DNA from: an uncultured Candidatus Saccharibacteria bacterium
Lineage (GTDB): Bacteria; Patescibacteriota; Saccharimonadia; Saccharimonadales; UBA4665
DNA length: 64,000 nucleotides
Reading direction: 5' to 3'
Assembly (NCBI GenBank): GCA_964499935.1
Contig: CAZCMS010000001.1
Span: forward strand, 674,452-738,451
Part shown: positions 5,972 through 38,381 of the stretch, one piece after another
How positions within the stretch are numbered: position 1 is the first letter of the stretch
Layout: each line of letters begins with the position of its first letter
Position numbers and translations under genes: made by a program
The notes under the pieces: generated by a model
Database searches by the model: none
Seen by the model: the letters and a program-made list of their open reading frames with translations, nothing else
What the model was told of the DNA's origin: nothing

Positions 5972-6006
5972 AATTACCTCCTAGTATACCATCCAAATAT
6001 ACATAT

Positions 6007-6939
6007 TTACTTTGGCTTTCTGGCAAGTTCACGTTTTAACTTCGGTGGAATCATAACAGACATGTCTTTTTTATCGCCCAAAATACTCGGGGTATGAGCG
6101 TGGGAATTCATTACTACTTGCGTGTAATCACTGAACACGACACGCATATGCTGCTCGACATTATAGTTATTGAAATAATGATCGTTACTCGCAGCAACAT
6201 GCCATACAGGAAGATCTATCTTGGTCCGGCAATTATCGAGGTCAAGAAATTCACTGGTAGTTGCCCAGTGGGTGCGAACATCGTTCGATTGCCATAGCTT
6301 TACTTCAAACTTCATCATTGCGTCGAAATCTGTAGTTTCCATACCCTCGATACGTTTCTTGCCGGCAGGCAAGCGCACATAGATATTCTTTATTACAAAC
6401 GAGTTAAGTCCTATATACCGAATAAGCCACGGTACAGGTCGGGCTGCGAATACACGAGTTGCCTTTACGAAGAATTTGCGCTGTCGTGGAGAGAACAAAA
6501 AGTCGTCCCGATGCATAAATCCAACAATACTAACCAGCAAATCCACTTTTTTAGCAAGCTCAGGATTGCGCTGTAACATACGTGTTGCAACAATAAAGCC
6601 ATACGAAATACCGACAATAGTAATGCGTCTACGCTTGTATTTCATCTTAACAAACGCAGCTAGATAGTCGGCCATGTCGTCCAGCGTGGGTTTTCGGCCA
6701 ATCTTGTACATGCTGTCCATGCCACCAAATCCAGGTAGATCGACCATGGTGACAGCACCGTAATCGTTAAGATTTTCTACTAACCCAAACCAGCGCTCCA
6801 ATAAAGCATGGTGCCCGTATACCAAAAGAATCTCGCGCTTTTTATTTTTGGGAGCAGGTACCCTTAACATACGTCCACGCATGCCATGAATATTGACATC
6901 CGCTACATAGTCAGCAAGATCTTGTTGTTTTTTACCCAT
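6007..6939 (-). CDS. Alpha/beta hydrolase
   Basis: 310 aa with a nucleophile elbow GISYG and alpha/beta-hydrolase-like spacing. Confidence 0.6.
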   Translation of the reverse strand: MGKKQQDLADYVADVNIHGMRGRMLRVPAPKNKKREILLVYGHHALLERWFGLVENLNDYGAVTMVDLPGFGGMDSMYKIGRKPTLDDMADYLAAFVKMKYKRRRITIVGISYGFIVATRMLQRNPELAKKVDLLVSIVGFMHRDDFLFSPRQRKFFVKATRVFAARPVPWLIRYIGLNSFVIKNIYVRLPAGKKRIEGMETTDFDAMMKFEVKLWQSNDVRTHWATTSEFLDLDNCRTKIDLPVWHVAASNDHYFNNYNVEQHMRVVFSDYTQVVMNSHAHTPSILGDKKDMSVMIPPKLKRELARKPK

Positions 6940-17490: not shown

Positions 17491-20106
17491 TCACCTGAGC
17501 GAACTGAGCTCGGACAACTTCTCATCTTTCTTGTTGCTCAGGTGATTCTTTTTCGGTTTTTGCGCTGCACGTTTTTTCTCAACAAGCACTAGGTCTTGCT
17601 CCACGGGCGTAGTGATTCTGACTTGCGTTTGCTCTTGTAGCGTTTTAGCATACAGCAAACGAGAAGATTCTATAGCACGCTGACTGGTGTCCCTGTCGCC
17701 ATCGTCATCAACGACCACAGTCATACCTGACATTGACTCCTGTGAGTGTACTGCCGCTATGCGAATATAGTATGCGTAGGCTGGCAGGTTTGCTATCTCG
17801 CCTTGCTCAATGAAAGGACTAAAGAGTGGCAGTACGTATCTTTCATCGGCAGGGCTACCTGACCTAAAGCAAATGACCGTACCAACATTTGCCAGAATAA
17901 TATCGACAAGGCGCTGCTGGTCTTGCTGACTGGTAGACTGCTCGGCCATGGTGAGAAATAGTTTGTATTTTCGTGCTTCACTCAGCATCTGCACAAAACT
18001 CATGGTGGCAAAGTTCTGGAACTCATCAACGTAAAGATAGAATGGTACACGGTCATCCTGTCCAATCCGTGCTCGTCTCAGTGCTGCGGTCTGGAGTTTT
18101 GCCAGTATGGTCGTGCCGAATAGTGTTGAGGTGTCCTCACCGAGTAAACCTTTTGAAAAATTACAGATTAATATCTTCCGACTGGCAAGAATATCTTCGA
18201 AGTCTATCGTCGATTTAGGTTGCTCCAGTACCCGCTTTGCAGATCCAGAAAACAAGAAACGGCCAATTTTAGCAGTGATACCCGCTGCCATCTTGACTCG
18301 CTGGAATTCACCAGCCTTACCAAGTTCATTATCCCAAAAGTCCTTCAGGTGCTTATCTTCCAGATCCTTAACAACCTTACGTCGGAACTTCGTGTCATTG
18401 AGCAGCTCAAAGATAGTGAATAACGTCGACCCTTCAAGTGTGAGCGCAGTCTGTATCGCGTTACGCAGTACATACTCTATACGGTGACCGCCTGAGTCAT
18501 CTTCGGAAAATATCTTACGTAGCACAGAGATAGTCGCCTCGGTTACAAGATCCTTTTCGCGGAGCAGGTCATCGCCCTCAATACCATCAGGAAGCTCAAG
18601 TAGATTAACACCGATGGGATGCATCAAGTCGTCTGGATTCATATAGATTACATCTGGGATACGAGATTCAGGAATATAGCGCAGTAATCGCTCGGCAAGA
18701 TCACCGTGAGGGTCAAGCACCGCTACGCCGTTACCATTCTGAATATCCTGCAATATGCTATAGAACAGCATGGTTGTCTTACCGTTACCCGTACCACCAA
18801 TAACATAGACATGTCGTTCACGCTCAGCCTCAGTCAGCCCTATTGGTGTAACCACTCCGTGATGATGACTCTCTCCCAGTAGCACCGCGAGTTGCTGGCC
18901 AGATTTCAGCGATACAGGTGCTGGAAGCGTACGACTCAGTGAGCTCGCTACATTGTCTGTTTTGCTCATACGCCGAGAGGGTACGTGATACAACGCGGCC
19001 AACTCTGCAACAGACAGTACCGAAGATCTCTTTTGGAAGAGCGATGGCAAGCGACTATAGCTCAGTGTATGGTTGAGCCGATGAATCACGGGTAGTCGCT
19101 TCTTAGCCTTCAGTTCCTGGTATGGCGGCACGCTCAGCCCATCGAGGCTAGATTGGATAGCTTGTCGATGTTCTTTGGAATGGGGGCTAGTAATAAGCAA
19201 ACGAACATCTGTCCGAAACAACGGTCGACTCACTTTTTGGTGCATGGTCTGCATCAGTTCTAGTTCAAAAGCACTGAGTGTTCGAGCTGGTCGATCACGT
19301 AAGGAGGCCGGCAACTGCTGCCGAAGTTGTTTTTGTTTACTATCGTAATAATTTTTATGGCCATACGTCGTGCCCATATAGACTTCAGACGTCAGACTCG
19401 TCATGCCATTAAGGCTACTCGCAAAGAACCGAGAAACATGCCCTATGAGTGGCATCTGCCAACTACTTATTTCACTGAGGATGTTTTCGTTACCTAAGAT
19501 TTTATGTGTCAAGGTGTTCGCTTCGCGCAAACGCACCGGTCGAGTAACTAACTGTAAGGTAATCGATTCGTCGTCCTCAAGTTTAGTCATAGCACCCATA
19601 ACATAACCCAGGGGATCATGACCTTCAAATAATGAGGTCAATGTAAGTGGCATGACGTAGTGTCCAGACTGCTTAAACACCGTAGTATCGCTATGCTGCT
19701 GAGGTTGTTCGACCACGGTGCGGACTTTCGCATCTGGTACATAGCTTGTCAGCATTTTGTGGAGTACTTTTACGTACTTTGCTTCGCAGGCGATACGGTA
19801 GCGAATGCCCTCTGCTTTAGTTGAGGCTATCTCAAAACTCACGTGCGGTTCACGTCCGATCAGTCGCTCACGCAAGGTGCGAGACGAACGCAACCCATGA
19901 AAAACAGTGAAGAGCTGTTCGGTTGCCTCAGGTGTCTTTTCAATCGAGGCTGGTGGTGTCATTTCAAGCCAGACTAATTCTCGATTCAGTAAATACCGCC
20001 AATGGAGCACCCAAAGGATCATACGCATAAGTAGTACGGCGACAATGAGAGCAACCACAATGCCAACTACTATTGGCCAGTAATGAGTAATGGCGCTGGT
20101 GTCCAT
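17491..20106 (-). CDS. Type IV secretion coupling protein (TraG/TraD/VirD4-like ATPase)
   Basis: 871 aa with N-terminal TM helices, Walker A GGTGNGKTT and Walker B-like FYLYVDEFQNF. Confidence 0.8.
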   Translation of the reverse strand: MDTSAITHYWPIVVGIVVALIVAVLLMRMILWVLHWRYLLNRELVWLEMTPPASIEKTPEATEQLFTVFHGLRSSRTLRERLIGREPHVSFEIASTKAEGIRYRIACEAKYVKVLHKMLTSYVPDAKVRTVVEQPQQHSDTTVFKQSGHYVMPLTLTSLFEGHDPLGYVMGAMTKLEDDESITLQLVTRPVRLREANTLTHKILGNENILSEISSWQMPLIGHVSRFFASSLNGMTSLTSEVYMGTTYGHKNYYDSKQKQLRQQLPASLRDRPARTLSAFELELMQTMHQKVSRPLFRTDVRLLITSPHSKEHRQAIQSSLDGLSVPPYQELKAKKRLPVIHRLNHTLSYSRLPSLFQKRSSVLSVAELAALYHVPSRRMSKTDNVASSLSRTLPAPVSLKSGQQLAVLLGESHHHGVVTPIGLTEAERERHVYVIGGTGNGKTTMLFYSILQDIQNGNGVAVLDPHGDLAERLLRYIPESRIPDVIYMNPDDLMHPIGVNLLELPDGIEGDDLLREKDLVTEATISVLRKIFSEDDSGGHRIEYVLRNAIQTALTLEGSTLFTIFELLNDTKFRRKVVKDLEDKHLKDFWDNELGKAGEFQRVKMAAGITAKIGRFLFSGSAKRVLEQPKSTIDFEDILASRKILICNFSKGLLGEDTSTLFGTTILAKLQTAALRRARIGQDDRVPFYLYVDEFQNFATMSFVQMLSEARKYKLFLTMAEQSTSQQDQQRLVDIILANVGTVICFRSGSPADERYVLPLFSPFIEQGEIANLPAYAYYIRIAAVHSQESMSGMTVVVDDDGDRDTSQRAIESSRLLYAKTLQEQTQVRITTPVEQDLVLVEKKRAAQKPKKNHLSNKKDEKLSELSSLR

Positions 20107-20657
20107 AGTGGTGCTCCTATTTTACTGTGGATGAAATTGTAGTATGCAGCGGAATCTTTGCTGAAGGTGCGAGTGCTCACGATATTGAGACCTTTGACGT
20201 TCATTTCAGATATTGTCCATGCACCCGTGACAGCATCTACATCAAAGACGTAGGCAACATGCCCAAACTCACCACGATCACTTTGAAAGACTGCGCCGAC
20301 TCGTGGAGTGTGGTTCACCTCATATCCATCAGCTCTCGCCCGATCATCCCACGTATTCGCATTACCCCAAGTCGCTGGAATAGGACTACCCGCCCAGAGA
20401 CGCATCGCAAACGACCAGTACGTACAGTTACCCCAAGCGTACGTATTACCTGGTACTTCTGGTCCCATATAAAAACCTTGCGTGGCTGCTGCTTCGGCAT
20501 TTGGAGTGGCAGCCAGAAACGATAGCGCTTCCTCGCCCAGTGCTAACACCGACATAAAGGGCAGGCTTACAATCACCACCAGACTTACGACAACTGCTGC
20601 GATGTACTTACGTGTACCACCAGAGTTCATTAAGGTGACGACGAGACCTGTATTCAC
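20070..20657 (-). CDS. CHAP-domain peptidoglycan hydrolase
   Basis: 195 aa with an N-terminal TM/signal, catalytic Cys context GNCTYWS and His context GHVAYV. GTG start overlaps the VirB4 stop (GTGA). Confidence 0.75.
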   Translation of the reverse strand: MNTGLVVTLMNSGGTRKYIAAVVVSLVVIVSLPFMSVLALGEEALSFLAATPNAEAAATQGFYMGPEVPGNTYAWGNCTYWSFAMRLWAGSPIPATWGNANTWDDRARADGYEVNHTPRVGAVFQSDRGEFGHVAYVFDVDAVTGAWTISEMNVKGLNIVSTRTFSKDSAAYYNFIHSKIGAPLWTPAPLLITGQ

Positions 20658-22387
20658 GAATAGAGCTCCGCAGGATTGGTAGTAATGAGCGGATGTTCTT
20701 TCGGTGAGGCCACCACTTGCACTGCAACGTGATGCTGATCGGCAATAATCAGGGCATCACCTCGATCACAAGTAAGCAGGAACTGTTTCTCGTATTCACT
20801 CAGATTAAATTCGCTAACAACGTTTTTAATCGTGGTCGTATCTTGACGCATGAGAATACGAAGTGCACTTTGCGATGCAATGGCTCGTCCATAATCAGAT
20901 CTTAGAAAGTCATTGGCTTGCTGAGATATGATCGACACACCGAGGTAGTACTTGCGAGCACGACGCACGAGGCCTGACACAAATCGTGCAGACTCTTCAT
21001 GCTCAAGCAACATCCAACCCTCATCAATAATGAGGAGGCGCTTTTCGGGATTAGCTTTGACTTGGTTTTGTGTGAAATTCGAGATGATCAACATCATGAT
21101 TTGACGCAAGCTTTCGGGCAAGTCTTTAATATCGAAGATAACAAGACGGTTATCGAGTTGAATATTGGTATGCGCGTTAAAGACACTTGAAAGACTACCG
21201 GAGATATATTTCTCCAAGCGTTCACAGAGTTTGATCTGTCCAAGGCTGTGAAGTTCGGCATAGAAATCTTCAAGCAATGGCATCTGGTCTTTGTGTTTTT
21301 TATAGACTTTGAGGATGGCCTTATCTACCGCAGCTTTCTCGCGGGAACTAAGGCCTTCCGCCATCAACCCAATCACTTCAGTTAAGTCTTGAGCGTGTTC
21401 AGATAGGTCGTCGCCTTTATGAAAGGTGGTCGCAAGATCAAAGGGGTTAATCTTCTCGCTGCTTTTGGCTGACAATTTAATGTACGTGCCGTTGACCGAC
21501 TCAGCGAGCCGTTTATATTCACGCTCGGGATCAATCACAATTACTTTTGTGCCTTGCATAAGCTGACGGAGTATCTCAACCTTGGTTGTGTAGCTTTTAC
21601 CTGAGCCACTCTGGGCAAACACAATTGAATTGGCGTTATGGAGACTAAACCGATCAAGGATAACAAGACTATTGTTAGATTTGTTGACGCCATACAAGAT
21701 ACCAGACTCTTGCACGAGCTCACTACTCATGAACGGAAAGGTCAGTGCAGCCGAGCTACTATCCAAATTTCGTTTCTGAGCTAACTGATCTTCTCCTCGT
21801 GGCAAAATTGACTGCAAAGCCTCAAGCTGTTGGTAGCGAGCGATCTTGCTATAAAACAAGCGTGCCGATAAAGTCGCTTCAAGTAGTTTCGTAATCTTGT
21901 TGAGTTCCTCTAGGCTATCTGCGCGAAGACAGACGTAGATACTCATCTGAAACAGTTTTTCTTGGCCACGTTGGATTTTATCTCGCAGTTCAATTGCTGA
22001 TTCAAGTGGGTCGGTAATTTCGCTGCCGACAATCTTACCAGCCCGCATCATGGCGCGCTTGGTTGATTCAAGCTCAGTAATCTTACGATGCAACTTTGGC
22101 AGTGCAAGGAGCGCGTTCACTTCGTGTACATGATAGGAAATATCGCAGTCGTGGTTGAAGTTGATAATACTGTCCATCCAGCCAGAATTTGCTACGAACG
22201 GATAACCGGCGATGAACAGGGTACGGATATAAACGCCGTCAAGGCAGAGATAGTCTGCCTGCTCCTCCAGACCAGCATAGCTCAGTACATCAACGGCATC
22301 TTGCTCACCAAAGGCCAGAACTCGTTCTTTGGCCTTCTGCTGTCGTTGCTCGCGCTTCTTTGCAACTTTTTGTATAACTTGCTGCAT
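20654..22387 (-). CDS. virB4: VirB4/TrbE-like T4SS ATPase
   Basis: Walker A AQSGSGKSY and Walker B LLIIDEGW. Start set at the internal ATG (MQQVIQK) behind GGGAGGA, directly after the upstream gene stop. Confidence 0.85.
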   Translation of the reverse strand: MQQVIQKVAKKREQRQQKAKERVLAFGEQDAVDVLSYAGLEEQADYLCLDGVYIRTLFIAGYPFVANSGWMDSIINFNHDCDISYHVHEVNALLALPKLHRKITELESTKRAMMRAGKIVGSEITDPLESAIELRDKIQRGQEKLFQMSIYVCLRADSLEELNKITKLLEATLSARLFYSKIARYQQLEALQSILPRGEDQLAQKRNLDSSSAALTFPFMSSELVQESGILYGVNKSNNSLVILDRFSLHNANSIVFAQSGSGKSYTTKVEILRQLMQGTKVIVIDPEREYKRLAESVNGTYIKLSAKSSEKINPFDLATTFHKGDDLSEHAQDLTEVIGLMAEGLSSREKAAVDKAILKVYKKHKDQMPLLEDFYAELHSLGQIKLCERLEKYISGSLSSVFNAHTNIQLDNRLVIFDIKDLPESLRQIMMLIISNFTQNQVKANPEKRLLIIDEGWMLLEHEESARFVSGLVRRARKYYLGVSIISQQANDFLRSDYGRAIASQSALRILMRQDTTTIKNVVSEFNLSEYEKQFLLTCDRGDALIIADQHHVAVQVVASPKEHPLITTNPAELYS

Positions 22388-22388
22388 A

Positions 22389-23048
22389 CTACAATCCTCC
22401 CTCAGCCTGTACGAGTGCAGTGTGCATAAGCTGCAGAGCTTGCTCAGTGAGTGGCTGTAGCTTAGCTTGCGATGGATTATAGAAACTATAGAACAGATCA
22501 AGAATTTCGAGACTCGATAGCTGGCGAGTATGCATGCCGACGCGGGTCATACCTTTACTGACAATGTCGAGCTTGAGCGATAGCTGTTCCTTCACCAGTT
22601 CAAAGTTTGCTTTGCTATTACCAACATAGGGCACAATAACGTAGAAATGACGGGTTAGTATCTTGTTATTCGTAATGAGGGAACGAATAAACTCATCGTA
22701 GTATTCGAGCTGCGAACGGTAGATAGCTTCCGGCTCATTGTCTTTGCGAAGCGCCACATCGGCCAGATATTTATCCATATCAATTTCACGGGTGCGAATC
22801 AGAATCTGTAAACTACTGCCAACCGAGTTCAAGAAGCTCTCATAGGTATCAATAATCGCGTCCTGTTCGTCTTCACTCCTGAGTTCAAAGTTGAGTGATG
22901 ATACCTGTAGTACCGCCCGGTACTGGTGACGGGGTAACATAAGGATACCGTCACGTACCCCTTGAATATCTACCTGGCTACGACTTGACGCTTTGGCTTT
23001 CGACTTCTGTAAAGCGAACATGGAGGCCTCCTTTCTTGGTTGTTTCAT
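22389..23048 (-). CDS. T4SS-associated hypothetical protein (resembles the N-terminal domain of Gram-positive VirB4 homologues)
   Basis: 219 aa in the T4SS operon. The pattern DIQGVRDGILML..YRAVLQVSSLNFELRSEDEQ recalls VirB4/TcpF-type N-termini. No ATPase motifs. Confidence 0.4.
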   Translation of the reverse strand: MKQPRKEASMFALQKSKAKASSRSQVDIQGVRDGILMLPRHQYRAVLQVSSLNFELRSEDEQDAIIDTYESFLNSVGSSLQILIRTREIDMDKYLADVALRKDNEPEAIYRSQLEYYDEFIRSLITNNKILTRHFYVIVPYVGNSKANFELVKEQLSLKLDIVSKGMTRVGMHTRQLSSLEILDLFYSFYNPSQAKLQPLTEQALQLMHTALVQAEGGL

Positions 23049-23499
23049 ATCTTACGCCAGCTTCGGGGTTGTTGAGCGCCGACAGGATTTTGCTTGATAC
23101 ATGAAGTGGCAATCGGTCAGGTACGGCTGCGACTACCTCTAGGCTTTCTTCCTTCAGTTCCGTACCTGTCTCGACCTCACGGTAATCTTGCCGCAACTGA
23201 GTGGTATTTTTGTTCCATATATAGAGCTGAGGTCTCAGGTTGTATCGGAGAATGATCAGGAGCCAACTGGCCAAAATCTTGCCACGAATACGAATCGTCA
23301 AGATCAGACAGATGACCGCTACTATCGTCATAAGAATATATTTGTAGATAGTGCCTGCCATCATGGGCGGAGGTAAAACGTACAATCCAACACTGACAAA
23401 GATCGGGACAACGAGCAGTACTATTTGCGAAAAGCCAAGGCTGCCAATGATCCGATCCTCAATAGTCGTCACTTGCGCGGGAACAACAGTTACTTTCAT
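22978..23499 (-). CDS. PrgI/VirB3-like small membrane protein
   Basis: 173 aa. N-terminus MKVTVVPAQVTTIEDRIIGSLGFSQIVLL followed by two TM helices, as in PrgI-family proteins. Confidence 0.5.
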   Translation of the reverse strand: MKVTVVPAQVTTIEDRIIGSLGFSQIVLLVVPIFVSVGLYVLPPPMMAGTIYKYILMTIVAVICLILTIRIRGKILASWLLIILRYNLRPQLYIWNKNTTQLRQDYREVETGTELKEESLEVVAAVPDRLPLHVSSKILSALNNPEAGVRYETTKKGGLHVRFTEVESQSVKS

Positions 23500-24989
23500 A
23501 TTTTCTCTCCTTTCTTAGTGGTATTTACTTTTGTTTTCATATCCTCGACAGCAGCACTGCGCGATGTGGGCTCCGATGCCTCGTACGTTGATCCTGTTTT
23601 TTGAGACACGCCTTTTGGCGTTGGCTTTGCGTTATAGGCCATCTGAGCAGTACCCCGTTTATTTTCAGCACTTTGCGACTGTCCTGTTCGTATCGCCTGA
23701 TTTTCAACACCTGGCTGTATCCACTTTTTCTTCGCCGTATCTGCCTTGGAGCTTACTGCTGTGGCTGCTGCTTTGCCACCACCAGCAATGTAACTGACAC
23801 CGTTCATAAACTGGCCACCAAGCTTGCGAGCATTGCGCGATCCAAGACTGACGTAGCTAAATTGCATCATGACACCCTGTGTACGAAGTAATGCCATGAC
23901 CGTGGCGAGCCCTACGATCATCGCCAAAAGCGTATCTGGCGCCTGATTACTATTCACGGCTGACATACCTGTAAACAATGAGGCTGCCAGTTGCAGGATC
24001 ACCACATGCACGAACAGGACGAATATTGTTGAGAGATACGTCTTCGCTGCTGTCTCCGAGAAATCTCGAAAGCCAGGCACGAGCCAGAGAAGCACCACCA
24101 GTGGCGATAGTACCGCACCAATAAACAATGTCACCAAACGACCGACGTAATAGACCAACAGTATGACCGTAAAGATCAGAAATGCCATCATCATGAGCAG
24201 GGCAGCAACTCCCTGACCTCCAGATTCTTTAACGACGCTCGTAAGTATTTGCCATACCGACGAACTACCTGACAGTTTACCGACGGCCTGGATAAGCACG
24301 TTGGACAGCTCAATAATCCCATCAATCAGGAACAGCGACGTGTTAATCAGCAGGAATATGAGCCCAACTCTCGGAAGAAGGTGCTTAAACTCTATCTCGT
24401 CAAATCCAAAGCTCGCAGCACTCATGACATGTAATCCGATCAGCGCCAGTATCACCACAAACAGCGCATTCGCAATCGCCACCATGCCAAGCCACAGATT
24501 AAACACACTTTGGTTGTCCGCCATCAGCGGCGTTGCTTTCGTAAAGAAGTCTAATGCTGCCAGAAATGGCGAGGCCACTGCTTGAATAATGTTATTTAAG
24601 AACCCAGTGACAGCCTTAATCAAAATGTCGACAAGTCCGTTGCTGACGCTATTTGGTGGTATTGCCTGTAAACTCGGCAAACTACTTTGCTGTGTCGCCG
24701 TGTTATGCCCATAGGCATTCACTAGAATCGACGTCAGTGTTACTGCTGCAAGGACTATCACCATGCCGATCAATGCACTTTTTAGCACATGCTTAGCATG
24801 CTCCATCTGTTCAGGCCTACCGGCACTGGTCATATACATATAGCCCGAGTTCACAATGAAGAACGTACAGACAATGCCAGCTAACGCCGCAAAGAGTCGA
24901 ACAGTCGGCGTTACCCAATCTCTTACAACACTAACGGCACTCGATGCATCAGCAAAGAAAGATAGGTGGATGAGAAGTATGTCACTCAT
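23496..24989 (-). CDS. VirB6/TrbL-like polytopic T4SS channel protein with N-terminal pilin-like segment
   Basis: 497 aa with about 8 TM helices and a Lys/Thr-rich C-terminal tail. N-terminal segment SGYMYMTSAGRPEQMEHAKHVL is similar to the upstream pilin-like gene. Confidence 0.55.
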   Translation of the reverse strand: MSDILLIHLSFFADASSAVSVVRDWVTPTVRLFAALAGIVCTFFIVNSGYMYMTSAGRPEQMEHAKHVLKSALIGMVIVLAAVTLTSILVNAYGHNTATQQSSLPSLQAIPPNSVSNGLVDILIKAVTGFLNNIIQAVASPFLAALDFFTKATPLMADNQSVFNLWLGMVAIANALFVVILALIGLHVMSAASFGFDEIEFKHLLPRVGLIFLLINTSLFLIDGIIELSNVLIQAVGKLSGSSSVWQILTSVVKESGGQGVAALLMMMAFLIFTVILLVYYVGRLVTLFIGAVLSPLVVLLWLVPGFRDFSETAAKTYLSTIFVLFVHVVILQLAASLFTGMSAVNSNQAPDTLLAMIVGLATVMALLRTQGVMMQFSYVSLGSRNARKLGGQFMNGVSYIAGGGKAAATAVSSKADTAKKKWIQPGVENQAIRTGQSQSAENKRGTAQMAYNAKPTPKGVSQKTGSTYEASEPTSRSAAVEDMKTKVNTTKKGEKI

Positions 24990-25009
24990 GGCCGAGGCCT
25001 ACCTATCTC

Positions 25010-25354
25010 TTAGCTGCCCCCAAAGGCATTAGTTGCCAGTGTTGCCACGATATTACTGATGACAAAAGCAGCAATCACGATAGCTAAGCCGATAGCCGAC
25101 CAAGTGAGGGTACGTTTTGCCTTATCTAGCTGCTCAGGATTACCCGAACTTGTGATGTAGGTAAATCCGCCGACCACAAAAAAACCGGTCGCAATGAGAC
25201 CGGCCAAACCTGCAAGCGCTTGAATCACGCCTCGGACAAAGTTTTGAACTTGTCCTATATCTCCCCCGGCAGCAAACGCCGGGGCACTCACCGCTAACGG
25301 CATCCCCAACGCCACAAATGCTGCGACAAAAAGTTGTTGTTTATGCTTCTGCAA
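25010..25354 (-). CDS. VirB2/TrbC-like pilin
   Basis: Signal-like N-terminus ending AFAA, then two hydrophobic helices around TYITSSGNPEQLDKAKRTL. TTG start chosen behind GGAGGA; the track ATG at 25432 lacks an RBS. Confidence 0.5.
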   Translation of the reverse strand: MQKHKQQLFVAAFVALGMPLAVSAPAFAAGGDIGQVQNFVRGVIQALAGLAGLIATGFFVVGGFTYITSSGNPEQLDKAKRTLTWSAIGLAIVIAAFVISNIVATLATNAFGGS

Positions 25355-25676
25355 CTTGTTTTCCTCCACTAAATAGTTGATACAAGGGAAATGTATCACA
25401 CTTGTAAAGCCATAAATACAGCTTAAGCGCAATCATAAAAACATAACAATTATTATCAACAGGTGCGAAAACATTGACTATTTTACAATATACTTTTTTG
25501 CATTTTTATCGAAAGATGTCTTAATTTAATAATTATTTAATAATCTAGCTCCAGTTGGTGCTATGGTTGCCACCCCTATATTTAGAATAAGCCCAGAGAA
25601 GATAAATGAGCCTGCAACCCTACTTCAACGTATCTTATAAACCATGTAACTTTGCCTGCATCAAGGACTGTCTAGG

Positions 25677-26666
25677 CTACTGTAATTCGGCTTTAAGTAT
25701 TCTTGCTAAAGCATTCATACTATTAAATTCATAGAATGCAAGGTATGCCAGCGCAAGTTTTCTGGCGTCAGTCTTACGAAGACTGACGCCTTTGCCAATA
25801 GAACTAATAAGGATAGCGTTTGCAAGCATCCGGCCAGTTCGCTTATTGCCGTCTTCAAAAGCCTGCAGGTATGGAACAAGAGTCAACGCTAGCTGTGCAC
25901 GAACAAAAGGGTTTTTTGTACGGCTGATAATAGAGAGTATTGTTTCCATATTTTCTCTCAACAGAAGGGGATTGGCGAGTGGCTCATAATTGCTTGCACT
26001 AATTCTAACGATCTTTTTTCGGATCCCGGCATCGATTCCGAGATTGCGACCAATAATCCTATGGAGCTCTTCAACGGAACTGAAAGCGATACGGTCTGTA
26101 AATAATTCATGGTTCTCAACAATGAATGCAATAGTATCTTTATGATTGAGTATCATCTGAGTCTCAAACTCAGTTCGATTTTTTGCCTTAATACCCTCAA
26201 CAAGAAGGAGTTGAGTATCGAGCAATGTGTAGGTGTTGCCTTCAAGCGCAGATGATTTCCATGAGAGCTCTATCGTCAGGTGTTCTAGTTCTTTTGCCGA
26301 CATTTTATTGCCTGTTGTTAGTTCGGTGACTTTGCTATAGTCACTGAAAAGATTATCAAGCTGCTGGCCTGATAATGAGTCCAGCCAAGTAATAAAGGCA
26401 TGACGGAATATACTTTGTGGACGATTCTCGTCTTCTAGAAGTTTATCGGCTATCATCGCGTGCATAACGGCTTCGTAGCTAGGACTATAGCTGGGACTAT
26501 TATTTGTGCCACTCTTACTAATAAGCCCAATGTCAGTAAGCCTCGCGAGTGCCCTCTGAATAGAGCGAATATCTACGTCTGGTAGATGCTTGCTGATTTC
26601 GGATGATGTCGTATCACCATTGAGTAAGTACAAGAGTACATACGAAGTTCTTTTGGTTATGTTCAT
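25677..26666 (-). CDS. Fic/Doc-family protein with N-terminal winged-helix domain, degenerate active site
   Basis: 329 aa with a wHTH N-terminus and inhibitory-type motif SSALEG. The active-site region QAFEDGNKRTGR is Doc-like (NKR) with Gln in place of the catalytic His. Confidence 0.7.
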   Translation of the reverse strand: MNITKRTSYVLLYLLNGDTTSSEISKHLPDVDIRSIQRALARLTDIGLISKSGTNNSPSYSPSYEAVMHAMIADKLLEDENRPQSIFRHAFITWLDSLSGQQLDNLFSDYSKVTELTTGNKMSAKELEHLTIELSWKSSALEGNTYTLLDTQLLLVEGIKAKNRTEFETQMILNHKDTIAFIVENHELFTDRIAFSSVEELHRIIGRNLGIDAGIRKKIVRISASNYEPLANPLLLRENMETILSIISRTKNPFVRAQLALTLVPYLQAFEDGNKRTGRMLANAILISSIGKGVSLRKTDARKLALAYLAFYEFNSMNALARILKAELQ

Positions 26667-26995: not shown

Positions 26996-27706
26996 CTAAT
27001 CGATTCTATTGAGTATCCCTCCGTAATTATAAGGCGTAAACTTATCCCCGATAAAAATGGGGTAGGCGGGGCTACCAACATTCATGGCGTCAGCGAGCTC
27101 AGGATCAAGTGGCTTGAATGCTTTGAGTATTTTAGTATCTAGCCCGAGACAATCTCTGTCCCTAAGCGTCATACGGTACATAAATTTGTAACGCTCAACC
27201 TCTGGATATTTGTTAAATTCTCTCTGTTTAGTAAGCGACGTTATTTTCTCACGCCACAATGCAACATTATTTAGTTCACTCTGCATACTGATCTCAACAG
27301 AGATGCAATTGGGAGCATATTTATTCATGCATTCGTAATCTGCAACAATCACACGCTTGAGACCAAGAAATCCTGAAACTGCAAATAACCACTGCTGTGC
27401 ACTTCCGCCAACAAAGCTGCAGTCGTTGCCCGGACACCATGTATTGTGAAAATCCAATATCAGGTCATATCGTTGACTCATTTCCATCAATTCAGCTGCC
27501 CGTCTCTCCTCAAGCACCTTACTATTAGCGTCACCAGGAAAAGATCGATTCAGATCTTGTCCCGTAAAACGAATATCTGCACTTACGGCTTGTTCGTTTG
27601 CGATAACCGAATCAATCCCTTCAATTGGTTTTCTGAGTAGAGACTCAACGAGTTCGATGCCAAGTGTTTCGTTGCCGTGCATTCCGCCAATTATTAGTAT
27701 TCTCAT
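26996..27706 (-). CDS. Succinylglutamate desuccinylase/aspartoacylase-family zinc hydrolase
   Basis: 236 aa. N-terminus MRILIIGGMHGNETLG is the family zinc-binding signature. Confidence 0.75.
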   Translation of the reverse strand: MRILIIGGMHGNETLGIELVESLLRKPIEGIDSVIANEQAVSADIRFTGQDLNRSFPGDANSKVLEERRAAELMEMSQRYDLILDFHNTWCPGNDCSFVGGSAQQWLFAVSGFLGLKRVIVADYECMNKYAPNCISVEISMQSELNNVALWREKITSLTKQREFNKYPEVERYKFMYRMTLRDRDCLGLDTKILKAFKPLDPELADAMNVGSPAYPIFIGDKFTPYNYGGILNRID

Positions 27707-28448: not shown

Positions 28449-28775
28449 TCAGTCACGAGCTGGCGATAAATGGGCATGACGAGCATCAATAACAGTAATA
28501 GCCTTTTTGTAACCACCAGCTCCAGATTGCAGCCAATCACTAATTCTGGCAATCGTCCGACTACTCAACGAAGTTTTACGAGCAATATTCGTGTAGGTTT
28601 CTTTTTTACTAAGCATACGTGCAGCTTCAAGACGAGCAGCAATCTCTGTGATTTCTTTCTCGGTCAGAACATCAGTTAATAGCGCTTGCATGTCTGTAAT
28701 CGAGTTAATAGAAGTTAACACCTCAGATAGCTGGAGTGGCATGTCTTTATTCCATTGGTCTACACACTTATTCAT
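28449..28775 (-). CDS. TrpR-related YerC/YecD-family DNA-binding protein
   Basis: 108 aa. LLTEKEITEIAARLEAARML...SLSSRTIARISDWL is the YerC/YecD HTH pattern. Confidence 0.8.
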   Translation of the reverse strand: MNKCVDQWNKDMPLQLSEVLTSINSITDMQALLTDVLTEKEITEIAARLEAARMLSKKETYTNIARKTSLSSRTIARISDWLQSGAGGYKKAITVIDARHAHLSPARD

Positions 28776-30903: not shown

Positions 30904-31146
30904 TCAGCCGTTCATCACCTTGGTGGTGACTTGAACAACCGAGTTGGGTTCGAGAACCTCATCCAGCTGGGCCTCACGACCGTTCACCTGGACCATCAGA
31001 CCTTGCTTGACCCTAACGTTCGCACAAGCGAGCGCATTAGCAACGGTCATGTCAGACGCATAGTCCAACTGATGGAGATCACCACCGAGCACAGCAACCT
31101 GCACCCAGCTCGGAGCTTCCTCGGCCACAACGATATCCGTAGACAT
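30904..31146 (-). CDS. Ubiquitin-like beta-grasp protein (ThiS/MoaD-like), C-terminal Gly
   Basis: 80 aa. VQVNGREAQLDEVLEPNSVVQV resembles ThiS/MoaD. Ends KVMNG-stop. GAGGAG RBS. Last gene of the E2-JAB-E1 operon. Confidence 0.65.
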   Translation of the reverse strand: MSTDIVVAEEAPSWVQVAVLGGDLHQLDYASDMTVANALACANVRVKQGLMVQVNGREAQLDEVLEPNSVVQVTTKVMNG

Positions 31147-31173
31147 ATCTACTTCACTACTCCTCTGTATTGA

Positions 31174-31842
31174 TCAGCGACTGAACAATTGTGCTTCTCG
31201 CACATGTACATCGATGTACGACTTGAGCTCCATATCTCGCGCAAATCGTGTCAACTGAGCAATCATGTGCCCAGCCAATACTACCGGCGGATGGATCACG
31301 GTACGCGCTGCGCACGGCAAAGGCGCACCCTCTCCATCAGGAAAAAGCCAATCCTTCTCGTAGGTGTCCACCGCATCCATATCCAGAGGGTTCAGCGCAA
31401 GCAATGTCATTTGCTCGCCACCAATCCGACCGTCAAGGTACAAAGGAACATCCGGGTTGAACTTGACTGACCCCCAAATATCGCATCGAGCCTGCATACT
31501 GTCTACACCGCTGATGACAACACCGCTGAGCGGGGTTTCTGCTGTCACAAATTCCTGGTGTGGAACAATGCTGCACTCAGACTCTCTGTAAGACTCCAGC
31601 ATTTCTGCTGCAGCCTCCACCTTGGGCCTACCAACATCGGTGCGGGAATAGATCAACTGCGCTGGCACATTGTGCGGCTCCACATAGTCCAAGTCCCACA
31701 AATGCAGCTCGCCACGAAGGCCGAGCTTCACCAACGGGAGCACCACAGCGCTACCGATTCCGCCGACACCAATCACATGGACAGGCCAGGTGAACTTACT
31801 CGGGTCGAAGATATCCGTCTGACCAGAATAGTCAGCAATCAC
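31174..31842 (-). CDS. ThiF/MoeB-type E1-like adenylating enzyme
   Basis: Rossmann motif IGVGGIGS, plus DLDYVEPHN and GVDSMQAR motifs. GTG start 7 nt after the JAB stop and behind GAGGTGA; the longer track ORF overlaps the JAB gene. Confidence 0.8.
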   Translation of the reverse strand: MIADYSGQTDIFDPSKFTWPVHVIGVGGIGSAVVLPLVKLGLRGELHLWDLDYVEPHNVPAQLIYSRTDVGRPKVEAAAEMLESYRESECSIVPHQEFVTAETPLSGVVISGVDSMQARCDIWGSVKFNPDVPLYLDGRIGGEQMTLLALNPLDMDAVDTYEKDWLFPDGEGAPLPCAARTVIHPPVVLAGHMIAQLTRFARDMELKSYIDVHVREAQLFSR

Positions 31843-31849
31843 AATTACT

Positions 31850-32479
31850 TCACCTCTCGATCTGAAGATTCGTAGGGTCGTATGGTACCGCATCAGCTGA
31901 AGCGCGAGGCTCCAAAGGAACGGTACGAAGTCGCCCAAAAAAACCCATCCCCTGGCTACGCACCTTGAGACGAATCTCGTCGGCGGTGCTGTCAAGCAAG
32001 CCTTCGTCGAACACTGTCACAATCTCGGGTATCACATCAATCTCGACCCGAAAAGGCTCGAAAATGTCCAAGCGACAGCGAAACTCGCCACGCTTGTTGA
32101 CAACCAGACTGATCAGCCAATCTCCAGGCCAGCGCTCAATATTCGCCGTATCGGTAGGGGAGAAATAGGACTCCATATTGACATGACTATGCCACTGGAA
32201 CTTGATAGATCCAGGATTCCCCGTACCGCTCAGCACCATCTCGTGAATGAAATGGGTCAGTGCATCATGGTCCACCTCAGCGTGTCCGGGCGAAGCCACT
32301 TGGTCCAAAATGAACACATCCTTCACACGGATGATGTCATCACGCACCTCCACCAAGCCAAATCCGTTGATCTCGGTCGGGCAATTGATGACGTATGCCA
32401 TCATCTTCTGCCAATCCTGAAACGAAATCTGCACTCGGGGGATACGAATCACTGCGGGGCCTGCCAAATTGACCGACAT
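31850..32479 (-). CDS. JAB/MPN (JAMM) metallopeptidase
   Basis: 209 aa with upstream Glu (TEINGFG) and the full JAMM motif HSHVNMESYFSPTD (HxHx7SxxD). Confidence 0.85.
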   Translation of the reverse strand: MSVNLAGPAVIRIPRVQISFQDWQKMMAYVINCPTEINGFGLVEVRDDIIRVKDVFILDQVASPGHAEVDHDALTHFIHEMVLSGTGNPGSIKFQWHSHVNMESYFSPTDTANIERWPGDWLISLVVNKRGEFRCRLDIFEPFRVEIDVIPEIVTVFDEGLLDSTADEIRLKVRSQGMGFFGRLRTVPLEPRASADAVPYDPTNLQIER

Positions 32480-33925
32480 CTACTTCATCTCCTCTTTATA
32501 CACGTGGAATGCTTGCAAAACATCTTTCTGATGCTCGGGGTTAACCGAACATAGACATTCAACTATCAAAGCCATCGCCTCAACATACTGCGCCTTGGCA
32601 AGGTGTTCATTGACGACTCTCTCCCGATTACCAAAACAAAACGCTCCGGTAGAGAGTCGATATACCGGGTAGCCACCTCTCCAGCTGCTCTTCACACCTG
32701 ACCGTAGCTCTTTTGCCGTTACCGTCAAGGTGTCGGCGCCAAGATCTACCTGCCAATCACCCAGGTCGTACGCTACCCCACTGTATTCATTGATGGCTCG
32801 CACGATGAGACGGATGCGATTGTTCACAACCTGCACTGCCAAAACTCCAGGCAGAGACATGATGCGATCAAATTCACCTCCAATATTCATCTCGAACAGT
32901 TGCTCGTTGGTTTCTTCGATAGCTCGCTCCAGGATCTGCTGCTGACTCGTCAAGTCATTTATCTCACCTTGCTGGCTTTTAACTTGCTCAGCGAGTGATC
33001 GCAAGACCTCGCGACCCCGCTTTACTGCCAAAACAACTTGCTTATGAGCCTCGATTCGATTCTTTTGCGCACTTTCTTGTCGCATTTCTACGTATACTGC
33101 ACGAGCACTATTAGGCGAGCTGGCATACGTCCGACTCACAGCAGGCCGCACCTCCGACGTTGAGTCTCCTCCCCCAACCAGAACATCTACTGGATTATGT
33201 CCATAGAAGTCAGGGGGCACCCACTCATCAGGTGGCGTCCACTCATCCCTTGGCTGGTGTTGCACGTCTCTTGCGCCTGGCTCCATCCTGGCTTGAAGTG
33301 GAGGATCCCAGCGAAGCAATAGCCCGCTCACAATCATGCTCAACCACCAAAAGGGGCCAAACATAAGCGTGACAACAAAGGGCCACACGTATCGCCAGGG
33401 CAAATCTGCCAATCGATGCTGCTGCTGTTCGTCCCGAAGATCAACCATATAGGCTATCAACGTTACTAGGCTAAAGAGCAGCCACATAACCAACAGTCCT
33501 GGATCAAAATACACAGCCGTTATAAAAGGCTTGAGACTGCTTTTTGTAAGGCCTAGCTTTAGTGGCTCACCTGTCTTGGCGACTTGCTTCAGCTGCCTAA
33601 GTTCCTTGGAATCTGAATCGAAAGGCTCCTCCTTATTGAGCTTGGCACTCAAATCCTGAAGACTCAAGACTTGTGTTGCCATCTGCATGCGTTTGCCACG
33701 TGTTTCTTCACTGACATCTTTTACATGCTCTTTGTTAGAGAGCATGATTTGAGCCAGTTTTTGGTTATTTCCCACGTTGTGGTTGGTGACCAAAACAATA
33801 CCGCCAGCGATAGCGATAGCAATCACACTCAATACGAGCGCAGCAATAAACATCAACGCTATCGATTCTCCGATATTGCGATCGATGAAGGTACCAAATC
33901 GCAACGGTGTCTCACGACGCGTCAT
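32480..33925 (-). CDS. Membrane-anchored coiled-coil protein with putative E2 (UBC-like) C-terminal domain
   Basis: 481 aa with TM helices near residues 20-45, 145-165 and 180-205, a Pro/Trp-rich linker, and a heptad-like region. The C-terminus has a four-strand pattern, then YPVYRLSTGAFCFGN (resembling HPN-x-G-x-IC-L of E2s) and a helix. Its stop directly abuts the JAB start. Confidence 0.45.
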   Translation of the reverse strand: MTRRETPLRFGTFIDRNIGESIALMFIAALVLSVIAIAIAGGIVLVTNHNVGNNQKLAQIMLSNKEHVKDVSEETRGKRMQMATQVLSLQDLSAKLNKEEPFDSDSKELRQLKQVAKTGEPLKLGLTKSSLKPFITAVYFDPGLLVMWLLFSLVTLIAYMVDLRDEQQQHRLADLPWRYVWPFVVTLMFGPFWWLSMIVSGLLLRWDPPLQARMEPGARDVQHQPRDEWTPPDEWVPPDFYGHNPVDVLVGGGDSTSEVRPAVSRTYASSPNSARAVYVEMRQESAQKNRIEAHKQVVLAVKRGREVLRSLAEQVKSQQGEINDLTSQQQILERAIEETNEQLFEMNIGGEFDRIMSLPGVLAVQVVNNRIRLIVRAINEYSGVAYDLGDWQVDLGADTLTVTAKELRSGVKSSWRGGYPVYRLSTGAFCFGNRERVVNEHLAKAQYVEAMALIVECLCSVNPEHQKDVLQAFHVYKEEMK

Positions 33926-33994: not shown

Positions 33995-34217
33995 CGCATA
34001 CACAATTCAGGTAAATTATTAAAATACAAAGACACAATATCAACCATAAAAGGTCAATCTTACTCCTTGAATCTTATATTTAAATATAAGCACAAAATAT
34101 ACATTTAGTCAATTAGGTCGTATGATGAAACTATTCACCAATAGACGCCTTGAAATAAAATATACATACATAGGTATTAACTTTGGATAAATTAAGATTT
34201 ATAGGATAATACAGTCA

Positions 34218-37364: not shown

Positions 37365-38381
37365 TTACAGAGGCGACTTATTGCGTCGCTTTCTAAGTAT
37401 GAACAGTGTCACGATCGAAATAACTGCCAAAAGGAGCACGGAAATACTACCGACCACAAGCATCAATGGGGCACCTTTAGATTCCGAAGCGCCTGCAGTT
37501 CTTGCGACGGCTTCTGCAACCGCATCAGGCAGAACGTTAAACTCGCCCAGATGCACTCTTGGTGATACTACTCCGGAAGCAGGATCAGTTACTTCAAGCT
37601 CTGCGTGATGCTTCCCTGAAGGCAATCCAGACACGCTGACTGACCAATTTCCGCTTGAATCAGATCGAGTCTTAAACATTTTGGGTTCTGAAAAAACATA
37701 CACAGTAACATCAACGTTCGGTGTTGTCTTTCCCTTCAACTCAAAGGATTCAGTTTTAGTGAACTCAGGTAACTTATCAGGAGTAGAGGGATCATGTTTC
37801 TGGTTATTGAATGAAACGTCACTCACCGCGGGAGGAGTCTGTTGCGTCGCTACATTTGTGGCTGTCGTAGCTGAAGGGGAATTTGATGGCGTAGCTCTTT
37901 TGGGTGGTGCAGCAGATTGCTTATTTGATGAAGTGCTCGGGGCTGCAGGAGCATGAACGGCCCTAGGGTCTGTAAATGTAACTTTTACTGATAATACCGG
38001 CACTTCAGGCCCACCATTTGGGTCTGAGATGATGGTGATAGTTTTTTCACCAGGGACTGAAGATCGTATCGTAAAAGTTCCCGTACCGCTCGACCCAGGT
38101 CCACCAACACGATCTGGGCTAATTGTCGCGCCCCCAGTTATTTGTGCGCCCATAGGCACCCCTAATTCTTCTGTCGTGTAGTCAGACCAGTCGTTAGTAA
38201 CCCATACCTTCAGGACAATCGTACTCACGCCATCTGCAGGTGCAGATGTCGCAGATAGGGTAGGTTTATAAATCCTGTTATAGCCTGCTCCTGCATTTGT
38301 ATGTCTTGTGGATACTAAAGCGAATACACTAACTGCAATTAAACTGAGAACAATGAAAACAACGGATATATTTTTAATCAT
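37365..38381 (-). CDS. Surface protein with Ig-like segments, Pro/Ser/Thr linker and C-terminal TM anchor
   Basis: 338 aa with an N-terminal signal/TM, a low-complexity APAAPSTSSNKQSAAPP linker, and a C-terminal hydrophobic helix plus RKRRNK. Confidence 0.5.
   Translation of the reverse strand: MIKNISVVFIVLSLIAVSVFALVSTRHTNAGAGYNRIYKPTLSATSAPADGVSTIVLKVWVTNDWSDYTTEELGVPMGAQITGGATISPDRVGGPGSSGTGTFTIRSSVPGEKTITIISDPNGGPEVPVLSVKVTFTDPRAVHAPAAPSTSSNKQSAAPPKRATPSNSPSATTATNVATQQTPPAVSDVSFNNQKHDPSTPDKLPEFTKTESFELKGKTTPNVDVTVYVFSEPKMFKTRSDSSGNWSVSVSGLPSGKHHAELEVTDPASGVVSPRVHLGEFNVLPDAVAEAVARTAGASESKGAPLMLVVGSISVLLLAVISIVTLFILRKRRNKSPL

Follow-up and report, generated by a model that had tools for sequence, protein, structure and literature searches.

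What is the function of a bacterial membrane protein whose C-terminus resembles the catalytic core of a ubiquitin-conjugating (E2) enzyme? The question is raised by a gene for a 481-residue protein in a 64,000-nucleotide stretch of DNA from an uncultured Candidatus Saccharibacteria bacterium (GenBank assembly GCA_964499935.1, contig CAZCMS010000001.1, positions 674,452 to 738,451). This whole stretch is referred to here as the window, and its own coordinates are used throughout. Saccharibacteria, members of the candidate phyla radiation, are epibionts of ultra-small size, and little of their biology is understood. An initial annotation, made from the letters of the DNA, had described the protein as membrane-anchored, with a coiled coil and a C-terminus like the E2 catalytic core (the UBC domain), and all of the peptides that it quoted from the open reading frame (ORF) are found in the 481-residue translation. 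We found that the gene heads an operon that also encodes a JAMM/JAB metalloprotease, an adenylase like those of ubiquitin-activating (E1) enzymes, and a small ubiquitin-like protein (Ubl). With moderate confidence we take the 481-residue protein to be the E2-like component, tethered to the membrane, of a compact four-gene cassette for Ubl conjugation. The operon is probably a ubiquitin-type tagging system, unannotated so far, with an E2-like family and an architecture that are both new.

A C-terminal domain with an invariant cysteine

The best-conserved part of the protein is its C-terminal domain, for which the mean column identity is 54%, compared with 44% for the whole protein. Searches of Pfam, NCBIfam, PADLOC and the sequences of the PDB with the full protein gave no relevant match, and a word-indexed search found only 14 close full-length relatives, the named ones being Candidatus Saccharimonadales. 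A search with a profile of the domain recovered 510 representative clusters (at 50% identity) with E ≤ 1e-3, 293 with E ≤ 1e-10 and 87 with E ≤ 1e-30, and a profile search with a broad alignment of the domain against an index of 5.8 billion proteins gave only 9 matches. (A tblastn search of phage and plasmid collections with the domain, together with a scan of IMG/VR, gave no match; thus, the family is not visibly phage- or plasmid-borne in those sets.)

The initial annotation had pointed to the cysteine of an FCFG motif as a possible active-site residue, and conservation of this cysteine had been chosen beforehand as a test of that proposal. The residue is Cys430 (domain residue 90, as domain residues are counted from protein residue 341); each of the 14 close homologues has it, as does every one of the 153 domains from the family at large. 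The reported spacing of 11 residues between a Tyr-Pro pair and the cysteine is also correct (Tyr419 to Cys430). Among the 153 first domains, Pro420 is 97% and Tyr422 98% conserved, Phe429, Gly432, Arg408 and Asn462 each lie within 94–98%, and a YDxGDW motif is strongly conserved in the family. No invariant histidine or acidic partner for the cysteine was present among the 153 domains, the downstream His441 being only 51% conserved; a Cys-His hydrolase is thus unlikely.

The domain occurs in three architectures. The majority of proteins consist of a membrane module, a linker, a stalk and the domain, and a profile of the membrane module matched 109 of 155 family proteins, the most distant of which still match profile positions 135–207. 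Proteins of the second type are soluble, 230–260 residues long, and consist of stalk and domain only, while those of the third type are soluble tandems of two stalk-plus-domain units. The second domain of the tandem proteins (P0063, P0068, P0072, P0087, P0091, P0100, P0102, P0114 and P0121) keeps YDxGDW and has the cysteine in 0 of 9 cases, aspartate taking its place in two (FDFG in P0100). Such a chain, with one putatively active and one pseudo-E2 unit, would resemble the pairs formed by E2 and UEV proteins. The second unit of P0091 has a weak match to the Pfam family Knl1_RWD_C (E = 2.4e-4). (Note that at locus L021 two ORFs that overlap, 5030–5677 and 5656–6408, divide the membrane module and the stalk-plus-domain between them; the gene is either naturally split, or else frameshifted or a pseudogene.)

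The predicted fold follows the UBC layout

We obtained two AlphaFold2 models of the domain, one from 14 sequences (model 1; predicted local distance difference test score, pLDDT, of 82) and one from 47 diverse domains (model 2; pLDDT 93.8, predicted TM-score, pTM, 0.87). The initial annotation had proposed a helix, four beta-like segments and, after a further stretch, a long helix, and both models agree with it: helix 1 is followed by four strands in antiparallel arrangement, then by a loop of some 24 residues and by three helices. In model 2 these elements are a helix at 3–16, strands at 21–27, 30–41, 44–55 and 64–69, and helices at 94–103, 107–118 and 123–132. The YPxY motif and Cys430 both fall within the loop, with the cysteine placed just before helix 94–103. 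As modelled, the order of elements matches the UBC layout one for one, that layout being taken from established knowledge and from the description in PMC1779556.

A UBC-like fold was the second property chosen beforehand as a test. In Foldseek searches of the PDB, UBC, UEV and RWD chains dominated the best matches of both models, none of them significant (no match at E ≤ 0.001 with either model). The best matches of model 1 were the Knl1 RWD domain, UBE2S, the TSG101 UEV domain, UbcH8, the GCN2 RWD domain and UbcH7, with E ≥ 0.056. For model 2, E2 chains (UbcH7, UBE2L6 and a Plasmodium E2) made up 9 of the top 13, with UEV and RWD chains lower down. A Foldseek search of a viral library gave nothing interpretable.

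Partner genes encode a JAMM protease, an E1-like adenylase and a Ubl

The order of the operon in the window is E2-like gene, JAMM gene, E1 gene and Ubl gene, all on the minus strand, so that all four functions are adjacent (Table 1). The E2-like and JAMM genes abut, 7 nt separate JAMM from E1, and 27 nt separate E1 from Ubl. The two promoter matches upstream of the operon are weak evidence, as the number of such matches in this region is not above the expectation from shuffled sequence.

Read from its sequence, the JAMM protein has Glu36 and an intact HxHx7Sx2D motif (H97-S-H-x7-S-x2-D110; coordinates 32150–32191). Its best match among PDB sequences is JAMM1 of the JAMM1-SAMP2 complex (5lda_A, E = 0.0018).

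The E1-like protein starts at a GTG codon at 31842 that is preceded by AGGTG; a longer listed ORF, of 273 residues, overlaps the JAMM gene and does not have the real start. Among PDB sequences the E1 matches UBA3, of the NEDD8 E1, at 3e-11, compared with about 1e-5 for ThiF and MoeB, and it also matches the ThiF, MoeB and TcdA models. GxGGIGS and the Asp and Lys motifs are common to six aligned orthologues, in which the only invariant cysteine is Cys177, in PLPCAARTV (codon 31312–31314). By alignment offset, Cys177 would fall at the crossover-loop position of ThiF, Cys184. (A search of the PDB with the C-terminal half of the E1, from which an alignment of the cysteine loop to ThiF was sought, gave only a chance match to an antibody; the equivalence of Cys177 and Cys184 therefore rests on the coordinate offset.)

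The Ubl appears to be a beta-grasp protein of the SAMP2/ThiS kind. Pfam SAMP2 matches five of nine orthologues (best 6.5e-7) and ThiS two of nine, the Ubl of the window itself scoring 14.9 bits against SAMP2, for which the cut-off is 27. A profile of the Ubl matches PF1061 (0.0078) and SAMP2 (0.012) in the PDB. The C-terminal Asn-Gly pair is invariant in the nine orthologues, and in two of them one or two further residues follow it, which implies a processing job for the JAMM protease. (A PRTRC system was considered for the cassette and rejected, as the match to TIGR03736, with E = 2.5e-6 and 27 bits, is far under the cut-off of 144.75 bits.)

The genes of the cassette are strictly linked

To define the cassette we scanned six-frame ORFs of 21 genome and metagenome loci with local profiles of the four proteins, which gave 20 distinct cassettes. 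All 20 have an E1 gene downstream of the domain gene and on its strand. In 17 of the 20 a JAMM gene separates the two; cassettes of the short soluble type have none. A gene for a small Ubl comes further downstream in 18 of the 20, the exceptions being L014, which has a fusion, and the second cassette of L022, which meets the contig end. In the tandem-type cassette of L014 (2849–4219), the gene at the Ubl position encodes 456 residues and was missed by the Ubl profile; its product has an N-terminal beta-grasp with ...KITDG at its end and, beyond that, some 380 further residues that match no family. This product may be a precursor that is cut by the JAMM protease to free both parts. Soluble homologues that lack the membrane module retain the same E1 and Ubl partners. 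The flanking genes vary (SecA, tRNA synthetases, purine genes, DUF3048 and two-component systems), and no E3-like or other conserved partner gene was present among the 21 loci.

Two contigs have paired cassettes. At L017 (5387–8558 and 10001–12912) both cassettes are of the membrane type, with a gene for a 337-residue protein between them, and at L022 (176–3005 and 3980–7427) a membrane-type cassette lies beside one of the tandem soluble type. The named records are all Saccharibacteria metagenome-assembled genomes, with the exception of one that was binned as Binatia; most members have no taxonomic label. The exception, L007 (DATKKU010000009.1, labelled Candidatus Binatia), has profile-match coordinates and scores equal to those of the L015 and L018 cassettes. 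Because all of the other named records are Saccharibacteria, the Binatia label is probably a binning error.

The G+C (GC) content of the cassette is 5–12 points over that of its flanks in eight of nine loci (including L001, L003, L005, L011, L015, L016 and L017). In the window the values are 0.515 for the cassette (30904–33925) and 0.437 for the flanks, and at L003 they are 0.632 and 0.516. Cassette GC rises with host GC, and the window genes have a GC content at third codon positions of 0.52–0.63. We rejected recent horizontal acquisition as the cause, given that the excess recurs in eight of nine loci and tracks host GC; selection on codons or amino acids is possible.

A membrane module, a linker and a stalk precede the domain

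The initial annotation had placed three hydrophobic helices in the first 210 residues or so. A Kyte-Doolittle scan with a 19-residue window found all three segments (Table 1), and the claim needs qualifying for the third (residues 184–202), which has a mean of only 1.65, contains a Pro191 that is invariant in the family alignment, and may be re-entrant. The most conserved stretch of the membrane module is the RLADLPW(K/R) loop together with this segment.

We counted Lys and Arg residues over 85 three-segment homologues. The mean count is 1.92 in the N-terminal tail (the 15 residues before segment 1), 1.31 in the 15 residues after segment 1, 1.29 in the 15 residues before segment 2, 3.26 in the loop of about 22 residues that joins segments 2 and 3, and 3.76 in the 15 residues after segment 3. 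Because it is flanked by few Lys and Arg residues (1.3 per 15, compared with 3.3–3.8 on the other loops), the loop at 41–142 is probably extracytoplasmic. The simplest reading of these counts would have the N-terminus inside, the loop of 80–100 residues outside, segment 2 returning, segment 3 re-entrant, and the stalk and domain in the cytoplasm; an alternative has three true helices and the N-terminus outside. That soluble homologues have the same E1 and Ubl partners argues that the domain works in the cytoplasm.

The Pro/Trp/Asp-rich linker stretch that had been described, PRDEWTPPDEWVPPDF, is present at residues 225–240. Note that in the family alignment this PDEW stretch is an insertion private to the protein and is not kept in homologues. 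The conserved soluble module begins at about residue 266 with the motif TYxSAPxAARxxYVxxR, and the same motif opens the soluble homologues. As for the heptad-like stretch, for which about 70 residues had been proposed, one register does hold, over only about 49 residues (approximately 292–340). Across these roughly seven heptads the a and d positions are 62–75% hydrophobic, and by a crude home-made score for a single register over residues 280–343 the observed value was reached by 4.7% of 2000 shuffles.

Weighing the E2-like assignment

We used hhalign to compare the family profile with a profile of four eukaryotic E2 sequences. The resulting alignment is collinear over 108 columns and pairs cysteine with cysteine, YPxY with YHPN, and SVNPED with DPNPDD. 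Its score is 18.5, compared with 11.9 ± 2.2 for a column-shuffle null, and was reached by 2 of 150 shuffles (empirical p of about 0.013). The initial annotation had likened the surroundings of the cysteine to an E2 active site; an invariant cysteine before helix 2 and a conserved proline about 10 residues upstream accord with this, whereas HPN is absent and there is no significant match to an E2.

A number of observations weigh against the assignment. The hhalign probability is 2.1%, and a control with a reversed E2 profile scored 17.1, near the real value. The best E-values from Foldseek are 0.056–0.084, with TM-scores of 0.27–0.45, and the E2 rows of model 2 have E-values of 0.08–0.75; among the 50 matches listed, no solved bacterial E2 is named by entry description. 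The Pfam families UQ_con, Prok-E2 and RWD gave no match to the 47 members at E ≤ 10, PADLOC and NCBIfam gave no match to the 47 domain members, and the domain profile found nothing relevant among PDB sequences. In place of HPN the family has YPxY, in which only the proline is kept. Canonical E1, ThiF and MoeB enzymes have the motif SNLxRQ, which in the cassette E1 reads HNVPAQ, the conserved arginine being absent in all six orthologues. Three true transmembrane helices, with the positive N-terminal tail inside, would put the domain outside the cell, and a cytoplasmic domain thus requires either that segment 3 be re-entrant or that the N-terminus be outside. Moreover, archaeal SAMP systems with a similar E1, Ubl and JAMM protease conjugate, to our knowledge, without any E2. 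(Note that the classical histidine is also missing in some bacterial E2 families; PMC1779556.) The fold evidence points one way throughout and is never significant, and we infer from it that the domain is homologous to E2 enzymes. On balance the results support the E2-like interpretation put forward in the initial annotation.

The domain might instead be a non-catalytic adaptor with a UBC fold, like RWD and UEV domains, in a pathway that conjugates independently of an E2, as archaeal SAMPylation by UbaA does; the membrane protein would then only recruit the E1 or Ubl, or select targets at the membrane, and its cysteine would have a structural or redox role. In keeping with this idea the best matches of model 1 are Knl1 RWD domains, the combination of a coiled coil and an RWD domain is that of kinetochore proteins, one homologue has the Knl1_RWD_C match described above, and the Ubl and JAMM protein are closest to SAMP2 and JAMM1, from a system that needs no E2. 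RWD and UEV domains, however, are typically without the cysteine, whereas here it is kept in 100% of first domains, within a conserved FCFG motif placed as in E2s, and the domains that have lost it are precisely the second ones of tandem proteins. We consider an adaptor of this kind unlikely.

A new cysteine enzyme that is unrelated to E2s (a ligase, a transferase or a peptidase, for example) could act on the Ubl and merely share the alpha/beta topology of UBC, and the facts that every structural or profile similarity to E2s lies below significance and that no curated family matches would fit such an enzyme. We nevertheless judge it decidedly improbable, as the cysteine lacks the invariant histidine or acidic partner that a hydrolase would need, E2, UEV and RWD chains are heavily over-represented at the top of the match lists of both models, and the elements agree with UBC one for one in both order and spacing.

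That the cassette is a sulfur relay of the ThiS/ThiF, MoaD/MoeB, TtuB/TtuC or CysO/Mec+ kind, in which a persulfide on the invariant cysteine would turn the adenylated Ubl into a thiocarboxylate, seems to us very unlikely. The matches of the E1 to ThiF, MoeB and TcdA models, those of two of nine Ubl orthologues to ThiS, and the occurrence of JAMM proteases in pathways of the CysO/Mec+ type are what such a relay would lead one to expect. Yet no biosynthetic genes for a sulfur acceptor are linked to the cassette at any locus, the fold is not rhodanese-like, UBA3 (3e-11) is a closer match for the E1 than ThiF and MoeB are (about 1e-5), and sulfurtransferases do not feature a membrane anchor, a stalk with a coiled coil or duplication into pseudo-enzymes. 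Lastly, it is very improbable that the membrane protein is itself a Ubl substrate or receptor, whose membrane function is switched as the Ubl is attached to it or released by the JAMM protease: no other protein of the cassette is large and variable, and its surroundings contain no conserved gene for a separate target or an E3, but the part that is conserved is the cysteine domain and not the Lys-rich or surface-variable regions, and minimal soluble forms of 230–260 residues keep both the domain and the partners.

Proposed pathway and possible roles

If the protein is an E2-like enzyme, as we favour, the pathway might run as follows. The 222-residue E1 would adenylate the C-terminal Gly80 of the SAMP2-like Ubl and probably hold it as a thioester on the invariant Cys177. 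The Ubl would pass by transthiolation to Cys430, which lies in the loop that joins strand 4 to helix 2 in the very divergent UBC-like domain, and from there to amino groups of targets near the membrane. The JAMM protease would trim Ubl precursors that have extra C-terminal residues and would reverse conjugation. The heptad stalk probably dimerises the UBC-like domain, and the variable linker of about 90 residues, in joining the stalk to the membrane module, would confine conjugation to the cytoplasmic face of the membrane.

As to the role of such a pathway, we regard defence against phages or mobile elements as about as plausible as the control of envelope proteins. Duplication, the swapping of architectures and the presence of pseudo-enzyme partners are suggestive of a system that, like Bil or Bub, acts in conflict or defence. 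Contrary to a role in defence, some chromosomal positions are partly syntenic (L003, L016 and L014), there is no match to the family in the phage, plasmid and viral sets searched, and PADLOC matches only the E1 core, partially.

The initial annotation had also raised sensing through the membrane, which is speculation. In a version of this idea that we regard as unlikely, the protein would be a transmembrane receptor-E2: its variable outer loop would sense an event at the envelope, such as phage adsorption, contact with the bacterium that serves as host, or the activity of type IV secretion or a pilus, and would switch the dimeric UBC-like domain on or off, so that tagging at the membrane is gated by a signal. 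The signal would travel through the module formed by segment 2, ADLPW and segment 3 and along the coiled-coil stalk, much as in a histidine kinase. A related option is that the Ubl may be conjugated to a membrane lipid or an envelope precursor, by analogy with Atg3, which conjugates Atg8 to lipid.

Features of the operon and its surroundings

The features of the operon and of its neighbourhood are collected in Table 1. The type IV secretion genes of the window (17491–25432) lie 5.5–13 kb from the cassette, with a gene for a Fic-domain protein in between. At L003 and L016, a DUF8128/DUF87 VirD4-like gene is located directly upstream of the cassette, in divergent orientation. A protein with bacterial Ig-like domains, encoded on the other side of the operon, looks from its sequence like a surface protein. 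An Rfam scan of the window found only a tRNA. (An integrative element bounded by tRNA-Gln was considered and rejected, as no repeat of the tRNA end of at least 14 nt is present in the window.)

Table 1. Coordinates of the cassette, of segments of the E2-like protein and of neighbouring genes in the window
Feature	Residues	Coordinates	Strand	Basis or remark
Gene for the membrane-tethered, coiled-coil, E2-like protein		32480..33925	-	481 residues; first gene of the operon; 14 full-length homologues
Hydrophobic segment 1, predicted transmembrane helix	22-40	33806..33862	-	Kyte-Doolittle mean 3.0
Loop between segments 1 and 2, about 100 residues	41-142	33500..33805	-	Variable in the family, short in some members
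Hydrophobic segment 2, predicted transmembrane helix	143-161	33443..33499	-	Kyte-Doolittle mean 2.33
RLADLPW(K/R) loop and hydrophobic segment 3, transmembrane or re-entrant	162-202	33320..33442	-	Alignment; Lys/Arg-rich flanks
Variable linker	203-291	33053..33319	-	Family alignment; sequences of soluble homologues
Heptad-repeat stalk, probable dimerising coiled coil	292-340	32906..33052	-	Single register, seven heptads
Conserved C-terminal domain, UBC-like topology (predicted)	343-478 (136 residues)	32492..32899	-	AlphaFold2, Foldseek, family size
Cys430 codon (FCFG), candidate thioester-forming cysteine	430	32636..32638	-	153/153 domains; hhalign pairing
Two sigma-70-like promoter matches upstream of the operon		34015..34112	-	10/12 matches each
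JAMM/JAB metalloprotease gene		31850..32479	-	209 residues; Pfam Prok-JAB E = 1.3e-4, below cut-off
E1-like adenylase gene		31174..31842	-	222 residues; one adenylation domain; Pfam ThiF 3.5e-18
Ubl gene, SAMP2/ThiS-like beta-grasp		30904..31146	-	80 residues; ends Asn79-Gly80 (30907-30912); Pfam and PDB profile matches
VirD4-like coupling protein		17491-20106		Type IV secretion
VirB4/TraG-like ATPase		20654-22501		Type IV secretion
Pilin-TrbL/VirB6 fusion		23496-24989		Type IV secretion
VirB2/TrbC pilin		25010-25432		Type IV secretion
Fic-domain protein		25677-26666		329 residues; FEDGNKRTGR
AstE/AspA-like gene		26996-27706		Adjoins the Fic gene
YerC/TrpR-like regulator		28449-28775		Adjoins the Fic gene
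Protein with bacterial Ig-like domains		37365-38381		338 residues; N-terminal signal or anchor; C-terminal hydrophobic anchor, then RKRRNK

Comparison with known systems

Ubl conjugation in bacteria was shown only recently, in Type II CBASS, Bil and Bub. The proposal that the architecture is undescribed agrees with what we found: there is no membrane-anchored bacterial E2 in Pfam, NCBIfam, PADLOC or the searchable literature, and that literature, with Iyer et al. 2006 (PMC1779556) and the papers on Bil and on Bub among it, contains no coiled-coil bacterial E2 and no such operon in Patescibacteria. Were the assignment to be confirmed, the cassette would be a further, very compact bacterial Ubl pathway, with an E2-like family that is in no curated library yet comprises at least 510 clusters. 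It would provide a minimal set of E1 (222 residues), E2 and Ubl in which to study thioester relays that lack UFD and CYS domains, a bacterial E2-like protein with a membrane anchor (the first as far as we found), and natural tandems of active and pseudo-E2 units akin to E2/UEV pairs. If the homology with E2s holds, the family bears on the diversification of the UBC fold before eukaryotes, and if either the receptor reading or conjugation to lipid or envelope were true, it would represent a mode of Ubl signalling not known in bacteria.

The anti-phage, ISG15-like Bil system (BilABCD) has the same four functions as the cassette, namely Ubl, E2, JAB/JAMM and E1, with no E3, and the chemistry is cysteine-based in both (as predicted here). 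The cassette order of E2, JAB and E1 corresponds to BilB, BilC and BilD if, as we assume, the letters of the Bil names give the order of the genes. The two differ in the E1, which is a single adenylation domain of 222 residues in the cassette whereas BilD is a multidomain IAD-AAD-CYS enzyme (PMC11601596). In PADLOC neither the E2-like protein nor the JAMM protease nor the Ubl has a match, so that models of Bil A–C, if the library includes them, do not fit, and the BilD model matches the adenylation core only (1.9e-8). The E2-like protein of the cassette, moreover, is membrane-anchored, with a coiled coil, and by its sequence is of another, unrelated family.

Type II CBASS, with Cap2 and Cap3, and Bub likewise contain bacterial E1, E2 and JAB-type machinery. 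The E1 core matches the PADLOC E1-E2 models of the Cap2 type (up to 6.9e-11) and, at 8.6e-4, BubCD. In contrast to these systems, the cassette has no E1-E2 fusion and no CD-NTase, and a gene for the DUF6527 serine protease is present at no locus. Bub (6E/DUF6527) uses Ser/Tyr oxyesters, with an E1 and E2 that lack the catalytic cysteine, whereas both the E1 and the E2-like protein of the cassette keep an invariant cysteine.

The resemblance of the cassette to the archaeal SAMP2/UbaA/JAMM1 system is weak to moderate, with a Ubl profile that matches SAMP2 and PF1061 and a JAMM protein whose nearest solved relative is JAMM1 (0.0018). The E1 matches the NCBIfam model for the SAMP-activating E1 at 8.7e-10, far below the cut-off of that model. 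From established knowledge the SAMP system has no E2, whereas a gene for a Cys-bearing, UBC-like domain heads every cassette here, and the Ubl of the cassette ends in NG and not GG.

Common to eukaryotic E2s and the cassette domain are the order of elements, the cysteine before helix 2 and the conserved proline about 10 residues upstream, whereas the domain lacks HPN and its TM-scores do not exceed 0.45. Membrane anchoring of E2s is known in eukaryotes from Ubc6, UBE2J1 and UBE2J2, which are tail-anchored; the anchor of the Ubc6 group is a C-terminal tail, whereas that of the cassette protein is N-terminal, polytopic and followed by a coiled-coil stalk. In the kinetochore proteins Knl1, Spc24/25 and Csm1 a coiled coil leads into a domain of the UBC superfold, as is proposed here, and the RWD kinetochore and UEV (TSG101 and Mms2) groups are both among the Foldseek matches. 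RWD and UEV domains are non-catalytic, whereas the first domain of the cassette protein keeps its invariant cysteine; the UEV pseudo-E2s find their parallel in the second, Cys-less domain of the tandem homologues.

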